DNA from: Myxococcota bacterium
GTDB taxonomy: Bacteria; Myxococcota_A; UBA9160; UBA4427
Direction of reading: 5' to 3'
Length of the DNA: 64,000 bases
Assembly: GCA_965250285.1 (NCBI GenBank)
Contig: OZ252299.1
Span: forward strand, 4,704,001-4,768,000
Under the pieces are notes generated by a model. It made no database searches. It had not been told where the DNA came from and was given only the letters and a program-made list of their open reading frames with translations. The position numbers and the translations under genes are program-made. Below, piece by piece: positions 2,070 through 53,414 of this stretch (its first letter is position 1; the number at the start of each line of letters is the position of its first letter).

Positions 2070-5000
2070 CTACCAGACGTACGTGACCGAGAACTTGAAG
2101 TCGCGGCCCACGCGGAACTGGCGCTCGAAGTACTCGACCGACGTGACGCTCGAGTCGTACACGATGCCGCGCTTCGAGTCGGTCAGGTTCTTCGCGCTCA
2201 TCTTCAAGGCGAGATCGCCGGGGATGAAATCGAAGTCGAGCCGCTGACTCACCACGAAGTCGAGCTGATAGAAGCCGTCGACGTAGCGATCGATGACACC
2301 CACGCCGGTCGGCCGACCATCGAGCCCGATCTGCGAGCTGCCGGCCGCGTCGAGCACATCGCTGATCGCGAAGAAGGCCAGCGTCATCATCGTGCCCCAG
2401 TCATCCTGGTCGAACGTGATGTCGGCGTTGGCGATCCACTTCGGCTGGCCGAACAGCCTTCGGTCGCCGATCAGCGTGTTCTCGAGTTCGCCCGTCTGCG
2501 CATCGAGAAAGAACGGATCGAAGCGGCGAGCCTCGACCTCGCTTCGGCGCACGCGGGCGTCGATCCAGGTGAAGTTGCCCCCCACGCTGAAGAGCTCGCC
2601 GAGCTCGAAGCCCGCGATGCCGAGGTTCTTGCGCGCCTCGGCCTCGATGCCCCACAGCTTGGCGTTGTTGGGGTTGTTGAAGAACGTCCGGTAGAACGCC
2701 GAGCTCGAGAGACTCGTATCGAGCGGGTTCTGCACGATCAGGCTCTCGATGGGGTTCTCGATCTGCTTCCAGAACGCGCTGAACGCGACGAGGTCACCGA
2801 AGTCACCCCAGCTGTACTCGACGCGACCGTCGACGCTGCGCACTTCTGAGACACCGAGCGTCGGGTTGCCGACGATGAGATCGTCCGAGCCGGGCTCGAC
2901 GCTGACGTAGTAGCCGACCTCACGCAGCGAGGGCCGCGCCACGGTCTCCGAGTAGGCGAACCGAAGCGCCGCGCCTTCGTAGAAGCGCCACGCCGCCGAG
3001 AGCGAGGGCAGGATGTACCAGTCACTCGAGCCCTGGTTCACGAAGTCGAGGATCTGCGCTTCGGTGATCCGGTCGACGTAGCTGCCACAGAAGACGCCGG
3101 TCACGTTGCAGTTCTCGGTCACGAAGTTGTTCGGCGGCTGATCGATGCCGAGCAGCTGATCGTTGTAGACGACGTCAGGGGGAGGCGGACCCGACGTCTC
3201 TCGATCGTTGTTGCCCGTGCGGTCATTGGGGTTGTCGAGCCGATCACCGAACAGGTAGATCTGCGGGAACGTATTCGGTGCACCGAAGATCGTCCGAACG
3301 GTCCCATCCGGATTCAGTTCGCCCGTGAACGGGTCGTTGGTCGTCTCGATCGTGATGTGCTCGAGTCGAACCCCGGCAAACACGTCCCAGTCTTCGAAGA
3401 GCGTCGCCTTCCCGTTGAGCCCCAGGGCGCCGATCTGGCGCACCGCGTTGTTCGTCTGGTCCCGAACTCCGATGATGTCGCCCGTGCTGGGGTCGGTCGC
3501 GAGGATGTCGAACGCTTCGAAGCCGAGCAGGTACGGAGTGTCCGCGGCCGCGATGGCCTCGCTGTTGCCACCGCCTGCGCTGGCCGTTTCGAGAAAGAAC
3601 GCCTCGACGTCGCGCTTCGCCCGCTCGTACCAACCCGTCGCGCCGAAGTCGAGCAGCACGTCGTCGGAGACGTCCCACTCGTAGCCGAGATCGACGCGTC
3701 CGAACCCCTGGCTCTCGACGACGTCGGCACCGCTCCAGAGAACGCGAGCCACCTGGTTCACCCATTGGCCGGGGCCCAGGTCTTCGGGGCGCGTCGGAAA
3801 GACGAAGCCTTCGAGGGGAATGTTCCCGTTTCCGTCGGGCTGGAGGAGCGCTTCGATGTCATTGGGTTCGTAGAAGTACCGGAGCCGTCGCGACGTCTCG
3901 TCCTGCTTGGTCCGGGCCCAGTTCGCAGCCCAGTCGACCGTGAAGCCGTTCCAACCGGGGAAGACGTGCGCTCCGTTCAGCTGGGTGATCAGCAGATCGC
4001 GCTCGCGCTCGAAGCTCTGGCTCTGCGAGTTCGGCGCAAACCAGGCCCCGCCTTCGCGGCCCGGCGGCGTGAGCAGGTCGTCGCGGCTCGAGCCCAGGAA
4101 CCAGTTGGTGTTGCCGTAGGCCAGATCGTCGTCGCCCAGATTGGTCCGAATCGGACCGATGAACAGATTCGGGGTCACACCGTCGGGCTCGTCGATCGTC
4201 TGCTCGATCAGGTCGTCGACTTCCAGCCCATAGATCCAGCCGTTGTCTCGCGCCTGGACGACCTCCTGGTTCACCTTCGAGTAGAAGACCGAGGTATCGA
4301 TCTTGTGGTGCGCCTCTTCATCGAGATCGAAGCCGATGGCGCCGTAGCCCGTCCACTGCTCGCTGTAGGAGCTCTGCGTCAGGTCGTAGCGGCTGCCGCT
4401 GTTGTTGAGCAGCCCGGGTAGCAGGCCGCCGTTTCGCTGGCGGCTGGGGATCGTCGACTGGGCGCTGTCGCGCGGCTGGAGCGTCTCCTGAAAGCCGATC
4501 GCCGTGCGGTAGTCGGTCTCGTAGTTGAAGATGCCCTGGGCGCGCAGCTCGCGGCGAAACAGGTCCCACCGCCCGCCGAGCAGGCCGCCGAACTCCATCT
4601 CGACCGTGTCCTTGCCGTCGGTCAGCTGGCCGACCGGGTTGTCGGGCGTGTACTCGAGAAATTCGTCGAGGGCGTTCGTGTTGAAGCCCGCAGCGGCGTT
4701 CACCTTGAAGGTCAGCTCGTCGGGGTACTCGAGGGTGAAGATGTCGATCGAGCCGCCGGCCGAGTTGCTCGGCAGGTCGGGGGTGAAGGTCTTGAACACG
4801 CCGATGTTGTTGACGATCTCACTCGGAAAGAGATCGAGCTGAACCGACTGGCGGTCGGGGTCGGGGCTCGGCACGGGCGCTCGGTTGAACGTCGTACTCG
4901 AGTAGCGGTCTTCGAGGCCGCGGATGATCGCGAACTGGCCCTCGACGATGTTGACGCCCGCGACGCGCTTGAGCGCATCGGCGACGTCGCTCGCCGCGAA

Positions 5001-5588
5001 GCGGGAGAGATCTTCGGCGCTCATCAGGTTCACGAGTGAGTCGCTCTCGAGCCGCAGCTCGAGGTTCTGCACCATCTGACCGGCGACGGCCTCGTTCACG
5101 ACGAAGGCCTCGAGATCCATGATGGCCCCGGTCTCGGCGACGGCGAGGGGCGGCATCGGAAAGTCGGATCGGTTGAGCTGGTCGGCCATCACCTCGACGC
5201 CGGTCATGGCCGACGTGCGGAAGCCCGACTTCACGAACGAGAGCGAGTAGCTCCGCCCTGGCGGCACCGACGGGAACTCGTAGGCGCCATCCGAGTCGGT
5301 GGTCCCGACCTCCTGCTTCTGCGGCGTGTCGGGGCCCGTGCTCGGATACTGCAAGATGACCGTGACGCCGCGAATCGCCGAGCCGGTGTCTGCGTTGAAG
5401 ATGCGGCCGGCCAGCGCGCCCTCACCGGGTTGCATGCGGGTGCCGGGCTCGGGCGTATCGGCGTCGGGACCCGCCGATGACGTGCCGAAGCCGCCTCCGA
5501 AGAGATCGACCTCACTCTGGGCCTGTGCGTCCGCTGCGCCGAAGACGATCGCGACGGCGACCAGGAACAGGCTCAGTGAGAGGCGCAC
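2070..5588 (-). CDS. TonB-dependent receptor with N-terminal carboxypeptidase-regulatory-like domain
   Basis: Signal peptide from GTG 5588 (ORF open to 5696); plug motifs DVADALKRVAGV, IIRGLEDRYS, LDLFPSEIV, KTFTPDLP; RFAYSETVARPS, GNPTL; C-terminal SAKNLTD..FSVTYVW. Confidence 0.95.
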   Translation of the reverse strand: MRLSLSLFLVAVAIVFGAADAQAQSEVDLFGGGFGTSSAGPDADTPEPGTRMQPGEGALAGRIFNADTGSAIRGVTVILQYPSTGPDTPQKQEVGTTDSDGAYEFPSVPPGRSYSLSFVKSGFRTSAMTGVEVMADQLNRSDFPMPPLAVAETGAIMDLEAFVVNEAVAGQMVQNLELRLESDSLVNLMSAEDLSRFAASDVADALKRVAGVNIVEGQFAIIRGLEDRYSSTTFNRAPVPSPDPDRQSVQLDLFPSEIVNNIGVFKTFTPDLPSNSAGGSIDIFTLEYPDELTFKVNAAAGFNTNALDEFLEYTPDNPVGQLTDGKDTVEMEFGGLLGGRWDLFRRELRAQGIFNYETDYRTAIGFQETLQPRDSAQSTIPSRQRNGGLLPGLLNNSGSRYDLTQSSYSEQWTGYGAIGFDLDEEAHHKIDTSVFYSKVNQEVVQARDNGWIYGLEVDDLIEQTIDEPDGVTPNLFIGPIRTNLGDDDLAYGNTNWFLGSSRDDLLTPPGREGGAWFAPNSQSQSFERERDLLITQLNGAHVFPGWNGFTVDWAANWARTKQDETSRRLRYFYEPNDIEALLQPDGNGNIPLEGFVFPTRPEDLGPGQWVNQVARVLWSGADVVESQGFGRVDLGYEWDVSDDVLLDFGATGWYERAKRDVEAFFLETASAGGGNSEAIAAADTPYLLGFEAFDILATDPSTGDIIGVRDQTNNAVRQIGALGLNGKATLFEDWDVFAGVRLEHITIETTNDPFTGELNPDGTVRTIFGAPNTFPQIYLFGDRLDNPNDRTGNNDRETSGPPPPDVVYNDQLLGIDQPPNNFVTENCNVTGVFCGSYVDRITEAQILDFVNQGSSDWYILPSLSAAWRFYEGAALRFAYSETVARPSLREVGYYVSVEPGSDDLIVGNPTLGVSEVRSVDGRVEYSWGDFGDLVAFSAFWKQIENPIESLIVQNPLDTSLSSSAFYRTFFNNPNNAKLWGIEAEARKNLGIAGFELGELFSVGGNFTWIDARVRRSEVEARRFDPFFLDAQTGELENTLIGDRRLFGQPKWIANADITFDQDDWGTMMTLAFFAISDVLDAAGSSQIGLDGRPTGVGVIDRYVDGFYQLDFVVSQRLDFDFIPGDLALKMSAKNLTDSKRGIVYDSSVTSVEYFERQFRVGRDFKFSVTYVW

Positions 5589-5747
5589 GATCGACGTGCG
5601 GCCCTCGTCAGCGTGCGCATTCGCGTTCTGGGGATGACCGAGGCGGGCGGCGGGCAAGGGGGATTTCCGTCTGGAGCGACCCGTAGGCCGGTTCATCGTG
5701 CCGAGGTGACGTGCGGCCTCACGAGAGGCGGGGTCGAACGGGTGAGG

Positions 5748-49533: not shown

Positions 49534-49737
49534 ATGGACACCAGGATCAAGCTCTCGCTCGAGTTCAGCGTCTCCGAGAGCGCGCTCGAAGATGCGATGG
49601 CAGAGTACGACGAGCTGACCGTCGAGGGCCTGCTGAGCGAGCTCCTCGACAAGGCGATCGCCTGCGACGAGATCACGACCAAGGTCGTCGAGGGTCCGAA
49701 CACCCTCGAAGAGCTCGACGCCCAGAAGGCCTCCTGA
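49534..49737 (+). CDS. 67-aa acidic hypothetical protein
   Basis: MDTRIKLSLEFSVSES..; GGAGG RBS; strong codon bias. Confidence 0.8.
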   Translation: MDTRIKLSLEFSVSESALEDAMAEYDELTVEGLLSELLDKAIACDEITTKVVEGPNTLEELDAQKAS

Positions 49738-49905: not shown

Positions 49906-50484
49906 TCAGACGAAGAGATCGAGCTGCACCGCCGCGGGTCGCACCGGGGCGGCCTGTGGACGCACCCGCGGGCTGCGAAGCGACGCCGGCCGAGACGCGG
50001 GCGAGGCGGACTCAGCGAAGAGCGGCAGCTCCGGGTTCGCCGGCACCGGTGTCTTCGTGGCATGGGCCGGGGGGGCGCGGCGCTCGGGCGGGCGTGAAGG
50101 ACGGGTGCCCGGATCGGGCCGATCACGGCGCATCGTCTCGCGAGGCCGACCGACCGGCCCGGGGCAGTAGATCCCTTCGCGGCGAGCCCACTCGAGCAGC
50201 TGAGCGTAGAACGCCTTGAAGTGCGGACCGTGGTTGAAGTGCTTCAGGTGCGCGAGTTCGTGACAGAGCGTGTTTACGAGGCTCGAGTACTTGAGCGGCT
50301 CGCCGGTGGCCACGTGCCGCAAGCGAATCTTGATGCTTCCGTCGTCGTAGCAGATTCCGTAGCGCCGCTTGACGTTGGCGCGCTCGGGCTCGAGCGATCG
50401 GTAGCGCAGACCGAAGCGATGGCAGATGCGATCAGCGTCGCTGCGCAGCCGGCGCATCAGCTCGTTCTGGGTGCGGCGGTTCAT
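49906..50484 (-). CDS. WLM/Wss1- or YgjP-like zinc metalloprotease with C-terminal beta-clamp motif
   Basis: YGICY..IKIRLR..TLCHELAHLKHFNHGPHF; disordered tail ending QLDLFV. Confidence 0.85.
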   Translation of the reverse strand: MNRRTQNELMRRLRSDADRICHRFGLRYRSLEPERANVKRRYGICYDDGSIKIRLRHVATGEPLKYSSLVNTLCHELAHLKHFNHGPHFKAFYAQLLEWARREGIYCPGPVGRPRETMRRDRPDPGTRPSRPPERRAPPAHATKTPVPANPELPLFAESASPASRPASLRSPRVRPQAAPVRPAAVQLDLFV

Positions 50485-50613
50485 GACCTGGCCGAGTGTC
50501 GAGGCGTGCCGCGCCAACGTCAAGCCGCGCGACGCGCAGCCACCGCCCGAAGGCCCTCGCGCTGCGGCCCTGATACGGGGCACGAGCGAGCGTGATCGCT
50601 ACCTTTCGGGGGC

Positions 50614-51288
50614 ATGTCGAGTGAACCCGACGAGATCCCGCTGTTCCCGCTCCCCTCGGTGGTGCTGTTCCCGCTGGCCACGGTGCCGCTCTTCGTCTTC
50701 GAGCCGCGATACAGGCAGATGATCGCGGCCGTGCTCGAGCAAACGCCGAGCCGCATCGGGATCGTCTCGGTGCCCGAAGCACACCACGAAGAGATGGCGG
50801 GGGATCCCCCGATCGAGGAAGTGGGCTGCGAAGGCGAGGTCGCTGCCGCCGAGCGAAACCCCGACGGTACCTACCGTATCCTGCTTCGCGGCACGCGGCG
50901 ATTTCGCATCGTGAACGAGCAGCGGCCCGAAGGCGATCGACTCTACCGCCTCGCGCAGATCGAGCCGCGCGCCGAGATCGTCGAAGACGGGGACCGTGAC
51001 GCAATGCGTGCCGGCCGTGGCGAGCTGCTCACGCTGCTATCGGACTTGTTGCAGCGCACGTCGCCGCGGCACGCGAGCGCTTTCGATCGAAGCCGCTTCG
51101 ACGAAGTCGGTGATGAACAGCTGGTCAACGCACTCGCGCAGGCGGTCGATCTCGAGGCTCATGACAAGCAACAGCTGCTCGAGGTCGATCGGGTGTGCAC
51201 ACGGCAACACATGCTTTCCGAGCTGTTGAGGTTTCGAATCGCGCAGCTCGAAGGCGGAGGCAGCGCCGGACCGACCACGCTTCAGTGA
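50614..51288 (+). CDS. Stand-alone Lon N-terminal substrate-binding domain protein
   Basis: IPLFPLPSVVLFP..PLFVFEPRYRQMI, DGTYRILLRGTRRFRI, KQQLLE. Confidence 0.92.
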   Translation: MSSEPDEIPLFPLPSVVLFPLATVPLFVFEPRYRQMIAAVLEQTPSRIGIVSVPEAHHEEMAGDPPIEEVGCEGEVAAAERNPDGTYRILLRGTRRFRIVNEQRPEGDRLYRLAQIEPRAEIVEDGDRDAMRAGRGELLTLLSDLLQRTSPRHASAFDRSRFDEVGDEQLVNALAQAVDLEAHDKQQLLEVDRVCTRQHMLSELLRFRIAQLEGGGSAGPTTLQ

Positions 51289-51573: not shown

Positions 51574-51785
51574 TTACGTCCGTTCGAGGGCGGAACCGGA
51601 TCAAGAACGCTGGGATCATCCGGAACCGCCCAGAATCCCCCGAAAACGGCTTCCTCTTCCGAAAAACCGAGGATGAGCCGAGAGTGAAGTGAGAGGCACT
51701 CTCGGAAAAGAAGCCCCTAGATTCAACCGCGATGCGGGCTCTGCCGCAGTCGTCACGGAACCCGTCCGTCGCGGTTTGGGACACC

Positions 51786-53414
51786 ATGACCTTCCCCCCC
51801 AAGGTCTGGAGCGGTGTGCTGCGCCGACTCCAAGAAGAGCTACCTGCGTTCGCATTCGATGCGTGGATCGCCCCGCTTGCCCTGGGCGAGACGCGAAACG
51901 AACACGTCGTTCTGCTCTGCCCGACCTCCTTTCATCGTGATCGCGTTCGCAAGACGCTGCGCTCGCTCATCACCGCGGCCTTCGCCGACGAGCTCGGCCG
52001 GCCTGCGAGCGTCGAGTTCGACATCGGACGTGGCGGGATCGCGGCCGCTTCCCTCATCGACTCGCCCGCTGAATCGCAGGCGGTCGAAGCGCCCCGGGTC
52101 GCCCGAGCGCAGGCGGCTGCGGCCGAGGCGCCTCGTCGAGCGCCGGTGAAGCGGGTGCGCCCGGAGACCGAGGCTCGACGTGCGGTCGGCGCGGGCCCCC
52201 TCGCGCAGATGCTCCAGACCACGACGCAGGGCCTGCGGATCCAGCAGGCCCCCAGCGCGCCGCCCCGACCCCCGACCGAGTCGCGTGCCGAACTGCGAAC
52301 GGGTTCGCCCATCGCGCCCGGTCAGCGCGTGAACGACGGTCCGCCGCGACGGCCACAAGCGCGGCAGGCGCCAGCCGAAGCTCAGCCCGGGCTCCCCTAT
52401 TCGTTCGACAACTTCGTCGTCGGTCCCTGCAACGCCCTCGCCCGCGAGGCGGCGTTCGCCGTGGCGGGCGGCCAGGCCATGCCGCTGAAGCAGCTCTACC
52501 TCGCTTCGCCGCCGGGCCTCGGCAAGACCCATCTCGCCCGCGCCGTGGCGCTCGAGGTCGCGCGACACAACGATCGCCCCGTGCGCTACGCCAGCGCCGA
52601 GCTCTTCACGAGCGAGTTCGTCTCGGCCCTCCGCAACAAGACGACCGCCGAGTTCAAGCGGCGCTACCGGCCCGAACGGGGCGGCCTGCTGGTGCTCGAG
52701 GACGTGCAGTTCCTCGCGGCCAAGAAGGCGACGCAGCTCGAGTTCTTCCACAGCGTCGAGCACGTGCTCGAAGCCGGGGGCCGAGTGCTGCTCACCGGCG
52801 ACCGCATGCCGCAGGACATGGGCGACCTCGACGAGCGGCTCCGCGCGCAGCTCGGCCGGGGCTTCGTCGCGGGACTCGAGGCGCCCGACGCCCACGTCCG
52901 TCGGCAGATCCTCAAGGTCAAGGCGGCGCACGGCGCCATTGCGCTGCCCGACGAATGCCTCGACCTGCTGGTCGAATCGGTGGCGGGCAACGTCCGCGAG
53001 CTCGAAGGCGTATTGATGCAGGTGGTCACCACCTCGACGCTGCTCAAGCGACCGATCGATCTCGATCTGACGAAGCGCGCGATCCAGCAGAAGATGCAGG
53101 TGGTGGCGCCACAGGCGAAGCGCCCCGAGGTCGGCGACGTGCTCGCGGTGGTCGCCTCGTTCTTCAAGACGACACCCGAGCAGCTCGCGGCCCGCAGCCG
53201 GCGGCGCGCCGTTCTCGTCCCCCGGCAGCTGGCGATGTACCTCTGCCACCGTCACACCGACGCGCCGCTCGCCGACATCGGACGCGCCCTCGACCGGGAT
53301 CACCCCGCCGTGCGCAATGCGATCAAGAAGGTCGAGCGCGAGATGCTCGAGAATCCGCGCACGCGCTACCAGATCGAGGCCCTGACCACCCGGATTCTGG
53401 AGCGCACGAACTGA
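51786..53414 (+). CDS. dnaA: DnaA-family protein (divergent paralogue)
   Basis: Domain I FDAWIAPL; YSFDNFVVGPCN, GLGKTHL, EDVQFL, NVRELEG; domain IV RQLAMYL..RDH. Confidence 0.9.
   Translation: MTFPPKVWSGVLRRLQEELPAFAFDAWIAPLALGETRNEHVVLLCPTSFHRDRVRKTLRSLITAAFADELGRPASVEFDIGRGGIAAASLIDSPAESQAVEAPRVARAQAAAAEAPRRAPVKRVRPETEARRAVGAGPLAQMLQTTTQGLRIQQAPSAPPRPPTESRAELRTGSPIAPGQRVNDGPPRRPQARQAPAEAQPGLPYSFDNFVVGPCNALAREAAFAVAGGQAMPLKQLYLASPPGLGKTHLARAVALEVARHNDRPVRYASAELFTSEFVSALRNKTTAEFKRRYRPERGGLLVLEDVQFLAAKKATQLEFFHSVEHVLEAGGRVLLTGDRMPQDMGDLDERLRAQLGRGFVAGLEAPDAHVRRQILKVKAAHGAIALPDECLDLLVESVAGNVRELEGVLMQVVTTSTLLKRPIDLDLTKRAIQQKMQVVAPQAKRPEVGDVLAVVASFFKTTPEQLAARSRRRAVLVPRQLAMYLCHRHTDAPLADIGRALDRDHPAVRNAIKKVEREMLENPRTRYQIEALTTRILERTN

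Follow-up and report, generated by a model that had tools for sequence, protein, structure and literature searches.

The window analysed here is a stretch of 64,000 nucleotides of Myxococcota DNA, in which a gene on the minus strand (49906..50484) encodes, from an ATG start, a protein of 192 amino acids designated as P0001. The protein is composed of a predicted metallopeptidase domain of 108 residues with an HExxH-x5-H signature, a Pro/Arg/Ala tail of 78 residues predicted as disordered and the terminal QLDLFV. A gene for a 67-aa acidic protein (49534..49737, plus strand) is the convergent neighbour; it is conserved and showed no Pfam match at E 0.1. On the other side, the divergent gene at 50614..51288 (plus strand) encodes a stand-alone Lon N-terminal substrate-binding domain protein (Pfam LON_substr_bdg), which lies between the protease gene and a degenerate dnaA (51732..53414, plus strand), the sole copy in the genome and located away from the origin. 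The motifs IKIRLR, TLCHELAH (50248-50271) and FNHGPHF (50218-50238), on which a preliminary description of this DNA had based its assignment to WLM/Wss1-like metalloproteases, were all found in the 192-aa ORF, and its coordinates for QLDLFV (49909-49926) and ELPLF (50017-50031) were exact. The low-complexity tail of that description was present as well, with a length of 78 aa between the core and the motif instead of the approximately 70 aa given.

Structure prediction of P0001 was done by using an alignment of 37 close homologues and gave a pTM of 0.58. The folded core, residues 1-108 (50161..50484, minus strand), was predicted as a helix, three strands and two helices, with pLDDT block means of 90-98 except for 73 at residues 31-40. 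The IKIRLR strand (50317..50334, minus strand) was aligned to IELRLR of Wss1, and the zinc site TLCHELAHLKHFNHGPHF (50218..50271, minus strand) to HELTH-x5-H of Wss1 (5jig), by which H75, H79 and H85 are predicted as the zinc ligands and E76 as the catalytic residue. The core is net basic (21 K/R versus 11 D/E in P0001), and the median net charge of the core is +10. The Cys before HE (C74 in P0001) and the third His were present in all of 147 near homologues. C45 and C74 of P0001 are two invariant cysteines close to the active site; they could possibly form a redox switch by analogy with Wss1, for which a cysteine switch is reported in the accessible portion of PMC4559962.

Family assignment was carried out by profile, sequence and structure comparison. 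The best Pfam match was WLM (PF08325; 39.6 bits versus a cut-off of 26; profile positions 20-107 of 190), followed by YgjP-like (PF01863; 35.9 bits versus a cut-off of 26; positions 108-195 of 207 only), and SprT (PF10263) at 22.8 bits was below its cut-off of 25.6. No meaningful match was obtained by an NCBIfam search. Sequence comparison with PDB at E up to 10 yielded four matches, all to Wss1 and weak (E 0.03-0.09), in which IKIRLR was paired with IELRLR and TLCHELAH-x-H with TLIHELTH-x-H. With the predicted model, Foldseek returned five matches at E <0.001, all to Wss1, and the VIA structural search placed Wss1 on top with Z 16.1 (rmsd 1.5 A over 104 residues) and 13.5, followed by a YbeY-like protein (9.3), selecase (8.8), abylysin (8.7) and SPRTN (8.4). 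In the Atlas, P0001 was placed among bacterial WLM/YgjP-like clusters with Myxococcota as the commonest phylum and a fungal WLM cluster at 0.89. Homologues are named DUF45, YgjP-like or M48 in the source databases, and P0001 is the sole YgjP/WLM match in its genome. By profile and fold, P0001 belongs to WLM and is neither SprT nor a full-length YgjP, in agreement with the preliminary description; a best match to YgjP, which had been set against that assignment, was not obtained, the YgjP match being partial and YgjP being on a separate branch. Fusions to further domains were rejected as candidates: only four matches were found among 145 longer candidates, with the N-terminal part different or absent, and these resemble mis-called or chimeric ORFs.

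In two quick trees computed from the core (108 columns), the YgjP branch stood apart with supports of 98 and 99, respectively, and in both of them one true WLM and two WLM-like proteins fell among the tailed bacterial proteins. AU tests with this single true WLM protein sampled rejected none of the alternatives (p 0.313, 0.125 and 0.184), and kinship of the P0001 family with Wss1 is taken as a lead only.

Among the known systems compared, yeast Wss1 (5xbn, 5xbv, 5jig and 5ln5) shares with P0001 the predicted fold, IxLRLR, HExxH-x5-H and the arrangement of a small core with a disordered C-terminal targeting tail. P0001, known from sequence and model, differs from Wss1 in being bacterial, in an identity of only 18-25%, in covering only part of the WLM profile and in its tail, which carries a clamp-type pentapeptide whereas that of Wss1 carries SHP, VIM and SIM motifs. 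Metazoan SPRTN (6mdx) likewise combines a zinc protease domain, a long tail and a sliding-clamp box, but its fold match is weaker, the SprT profile is below cut-off, and its zinc-binding subdomain, SH and UBZ are absent from P0001. The preliminary description proposed a functional analogue of SPRTN; since the domain is nearer to Wss1 than to SPRTN, the comparison is an architectural analogy and not orthology. YgjP-like/DUF45 proteins have the HExxH core in common with P0001, and their Pfam score is above cut-off; unlike them, P0001 lacks the N-terminal half, carries YGIC where the YgjP-type proteins fetched carry WGS/T, possesses the tail and motif, and is on a separate branch in both trees. 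The archaeal minigluzincins (selecase 4qhf, proabylysin 4jiu and projannalysin 4jix) resemble P0001 as stand-alone zinc peptidase cores of about 105 aa (Z 7.5-8.8), but they are without tail or clamp motif and match its structure less well than Wss1 does.

The Pro/Ala/Arg-rich basic linker (49927..50160, minus strand) contains 19 Pro, 15 K/R and 6 D/E and was predicted to be disordered (mean pLDDT of 51-64 per 10-residue block). In homologues, it is between about 26 and 112 aa long, its sequence is not conserved, and the net charge of the tail is positive in 134 out of 147. The ELPLF inside the linker (minus strand), pointed out in the preliminary description, is poorly conserved among homologues; it gained no support as a second clamp site, the Gln being missing and a second motif-like site of any kind being present in only 15 of the 147 homologues. 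Cdc48-binding SHP/VIM and SUMO-binding SIM motifs are unlikely in the tail of P0001, because QLxLF is its sole conserved element.

The terminal QLDLF (49912..49926, minus strand) ends one residue before the C-terminus and is an exact match to the clamp-binding consensus QL[S/D]LF. To avoid ranking bias, a core-only query (residues 1-104) was used, and among the best 120 of the 2,264 matches ranked in this way QLxLF was present in the tail of 112 and within four residues of the end in 109. With the full protein as the query, 114 of the 120 homologues listed carried it in the tail. It was also present in 71 of the 79 parsed GTDB loci (80 loci, one unparsed) and in 63 of 80 metagenome loci (62 of the 74 complete ones), so the retention of the motif in orthologues, proposed as a check in the preliminary description, was borne out. 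Among distant representatives (102 at 50% clustering, minus one without HExxH and 12 with tails shorter than 20 aa), the strict motif was found in 51 of 89 and the relaxed one in 64, the remaining 25 being without even the relaxed form; thus, the motif decays with distance. These four sets overlap and are related, not independent. Shuffled tails contained QLxLF in only 10 of 29,400 cases, and the conserved terminal QLxLF is more than chance. Of the five positions of the motif, four are fixed and only the third is free to vary (E, D, S, T, N, G or A), the same pattern as in binding studies of clamp peptides, according to the available parts of PMC11139829 and bioRxiv 10.64898/2026.05.27.728225; the latter, in the part seen, gives 0.1 uM for QLDLF versus the E. 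coli clamp and 28 uM versus the B. subtilis clamp. The clamp partners Pol II, Pol IV, Pol III alpha, Hda and B. subtilis Pol Y1 resemble P0001 in carrying QL[S/D]LF at a disordered terminus. In some homologues, 10-20 more residues follow the motif. Motif-like QLALSF, QLPLSF or QLSLGF was observed on an N-terminal extension in some distant homologues (P0209, P0220, P0233, P0247, P0215; L148, L150).

The genome, which also encodes DnaN (G000:C1:4903706-4904818) and a SRAP protein, was scanned for QLxLF in 32,646 stop-to-stop frames of at least 100 aa, and 51 matches were obtained. Three of them end no more than one residue before the stop, namely those of P0001, a Y-family polymerase (QLDLF) and a radical SAM protein (QLELF), with no others. 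Three further matches, 9-12 residues before the stop, belong to the unrelated ExbD, an amidotransferase and a methyltransferase, by which a background level becomes visible. Separately, an internal QLDLF past a Pro-rich stretch was observed in a 1,225-aa frame of the window (2070-5747, minus strand; G000:C1 4706070-4709747).

Within the Myxococcota class of P0001, 53 out of 58 genomes, this genome included, have a strong orthologue (E <1e-25). Elsewhere in the phylum, 243 genomes yielded no strong orthologue, and weak matches were obtained in 17 of them. The 15 weak matches fetched from outside the class comprised 14 YgjP-type frames without tails and one without a frame. Relatives outside the class that keep the motif without dnaA nearby do exist, e.g. 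L225 (10.4 kb) and L146; for P0209, of a distant motif-bearing clade, Acidobacteriota is the commonest phylum in the nearest Atlas cluster, as the taxonomy of the Atlas summary gives it. Two single neighbours, PolX-PHP at L209 and an integrase at L146, were regarded as anecdotal. Short tail-less relatives were without the motif in all of 19 proteins and 36 viral loci. The relatives of the core on viral contigs (L226-L261; P0249-P0296) are 95-130 aa in length, and two are from giant-virus bins by name.

Gene neighbours were counted by targeted tblastn within 4 kb at 80 loci. dnaA and the 67-aa ORF were each found at 77 loci, the Lon N-domain gene at 71, thiC at 64, cofH at 55 and a DUF4149 gene at 54, and none of the stable neighbours across the 80 loci is a conserved DNA-repair gene. 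In the family most distant within the class, four loci were examined, and the linkage to dnaA was found there, too. It is possible that the Lon N-domain protein is an adaptor, and the 67-aa protein might be an inhibitor, a DNA mimic or a partner. Across the class, the motifs of DnaA (Walker B mostly ED, RLxSQ and RDHPSVRNA) are altered relative to the canonical forms, and the protein has a long low-complexity linker. dnaA is located about 135 kb from the GC-skew minimum (genome position 4,891,305, near dnaN), and none was found between dnaN and rnpA. A second dnaA-like gene exists in family f13 of the class; in G218, the one genome whose ORFs were listed, it lies directly before dnaN-gyrB. Hda was not found above cut-off in the present genome and was found in one of the 14 control genomes. 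The way in which replication is initiated might be unusual in this class. An origin beside the protease gene was considered and rejected, the skew minimum being about 137 kb off and DnaA-box matches being absent from the locus; strict matches number only 10 in the 6.25 Mb of the genome.

A conserved promoter-like element, TTGACG-N17-GACACT (50495..50523, minus strand), lies 10 nt upstream of the ATG. TTGAC was present within 70 nt upstream in 69 of 79 orthologues, in 55 of them with a 17-nt spacer, and a generic promoter and terminator scan at the locus gave nothing above threshold, this element included. Judged from these upstream sequences, the protease is probably expressed constitutively. 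For the SOS question, a candidate LexA box, TTTCG-YYT-N4-TTCGC (a TTCG-N7-TTCG direct repeat), was used. It has six matches in the genome, four of which (G000:C1 174099, 2799426, 2805403 and 3248037) precede the lexA, imuA-like, dnaE2/dinB and radical SAM (QLELF) genes; this count is circular, because the pattern was derived from those very sites, and it applies to this genome only. SOS control of the protease was rejected, with the candidate box absent before its gene and missing from 106 of 108 orthologue upstream regions, a loose form being present in only two. Short tandem CACCCCACTCACT-like repeats were observed upstream of recA (G000:C1 about 3406330-3406400).

Since a predicted Wss1-like fold is combined with a conserved clamp-type peptide, P0001 is likely a replication-coupled protease which clears protein obstacles from DNA, a function that none of the papers covered by the search ascribes to bacteria. 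In the full form of this reading, which we hold with about even confidence, it would be expressed constitutively, dock on the clamp and cleave proteins by which DNA is blocked. QLDLF would dock in the pocket of the beta sliding clamp (DnaN), and since this peptide matches the published consensus exactly and is terminal, docking of P0001 on the clamp is considered as very probable. The tail would supply reach, acting as a leash that keeps a promiscuous protease on clamp-loaded DNA, and in this respect it would do the targeting job of the SUMO, ubiquitin and Cdc48 motifs of Wss1 or of the PIP box and UBZ of SPRTN. Both of these enzymes are described as DNA-dependent and without sequence specificity in the accessible portions of PMC7782752 and PMC4559962, for which reason a leash would be useful. 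The basic core would engage DNA and cut proteins stuck there, with activation by DNA through the core and the tail. Protease activity itself is quite likely; the zinc-protease residues are intact. Blocking proteins, covalent DNA-protein crosslinks among them, would then be cut at or behind the replication fork; the broad specificity for DNA-bound proteins which this presupposes is the weakest step.

The persistence of the motif at loci without dnaA (L225, L146) counts for this clearance of blocking proteins. Counted against it are the lack of repair neighbours and of a candidate SOS box, the decay of the motif in distant relatives, and the fold, which is common to archaeal minigluzincins, YbeY-like metal hydrolases and tail-less phage proteins, so that the substrate is not fixed by the fold. 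With no strong orthologue in the 243 genomes outside the class, the range is narrower than one would expect of a general repair need. According to the part of PMC9240642 that is accessible, SPRTN with a mutated PIP box is still able to proteolyse crosslinks, and therefore the clamp-box analogy alone does not imply crosslink repair. A bolder form of the same reading, doubtful at present, is that P0001 is the first dedicated bacterial crosslink protease, targeted by the clamp in place of ubiquitin or SUMO and the nearest prokaryotic kin of Wss1, that replication-coupled crosslink proteolysis predates eukaryotes, and that in this class the protein was possibly recruited to control the degenerate, displaced DnaA through clamp-coupled cleavage.

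As the main rival, P0001 would be a regulatory protease docked on the clamp and directed at a specific replication substrate; the neighbouring degenerate DnaA is the most attractive candidate, and the clamp or one of its partners might be the substrate as well. We rate this rival as rather unlikely. The DnaA version, in which DnaA would be cut after the start of replication in place of Hda-type inactivation, perhaps with the Lon N-domain protein as the adaptor, is equally on the unlikely side. It would account for dnaA and the Lon N-domain gene at 77 and 71 of the 80 loci, respectively, extending to the four loci of the most distant family, for a single dnaA without Hda above cut-off in this genome, for an apparently constitutive promoter, and for altered DnaA motifs with the long low-complexity linker, by which the control through ATP hydrolysis may be lost. 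However, the protease gene is transcribed away from dnaA, and the conserved block also contains the unrelated thiC and cofH (64 and 55 of 80), so it is maybe plain inherited synteny in one class; the relatives outside the class (L225, L146) keep the motif with no dnaA nearby, and with Hda above cut-off in only one of 14 control genomes, a lack of Hda is ordinary.

Other readings concern the activity or the partner of the motif. A non-protease metal-dependent hydrolase at the fork, e.g. a nucleotide-sanitising pyrophosphatase or a nuclease, is suggested by the YgjP score of 35.9 above cut-off, by the labels DUF45, YgjP-like and M48 among homologues, by YbeY-type RNases sharing the fold at Z 7.6 and by P0001 being the only YgjP/WLM match of its genome. 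YgjP is labelled as a UTP pyrophosphatase, and no primary paper on this activity was found in the literature search. Considering that the first 107 positions of the YgjP profile are missing from P0001, that the true YgjP-type proteins fetched have WGS/T, no tail and a branch of their own (support 98-99), and that the structural match to Wss1 is far stronger, such a hydrolase appears improbable. Much the same low probability is given to P0001 being a general small peptidase whose QLxLF is a degron or binds a partner other than the clamp (a chaperone, a protease adaptor or the Lon N-domain protein). Hydrophobic C-termini can serve for docking or degradation, and the Lon N-domain gene is adjacent; second partners of clamp-type motifs, e.g. 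tau, are also mentioned in the available part of PMC11139829. Against it are the exact match to the clamp consensus with a near-invariant Gln, the QLDLF at the end of the Y-family polymerase of the same genome, and the tolerance of 10-20 residues beyond the motif in some homologues, unlike a strict C-terminal degron. Finally, the short relatives at 36 viral loci and the weak sharing of the fold with the small zinc peptidases CapP and PprI (Z 5.0-5.6) would be consistent with an anti-phage or stress sensor which travels with the clamp and cuts DNA-binding or replication proteins of foreign origin or, on infection, a host target, but a fixed place on the chromosome, surrounded by housekeeping genes, and occurrence in nearly all genomes of the class are unlike defence genes, and this reading is very improbable.

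The family is real, strongly conserved and probably undescribed in print. A literature search, which mostly covered journals other than subscription ones, revealed no account of a bacterial WLM protease that carries a clamp motif, and supplements may list the family. In the accessible text of a 2024 clamp review (PMC11139829), in which polymerases, repair factors and regulators are named as clamp partners, the words 'protease' and 'peptidase' do not occur. Bacterial crosslink repair is described as recombination and excision repair in the portions available of PMC7782752 and PMC6219452, and only indirect genetic hints for Lon are given in that of bioRxiv 2020.10.27.357855. Given a Wss1-fold enzyme of 108 aa tethered to the clamp, the question of a dedicated bacterial crosslink protease would become directly testable with purified proteins. 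If the reading as a clamp-docked protease for proteins blocking DNA is true, P0001 would bring a protease into the set of known clamp partners and be a minimal model for confining Wss1/SPRTN activity to DNA; if DnaA is the substrate instead, the family would represent a proteolytic alternative to Hda.
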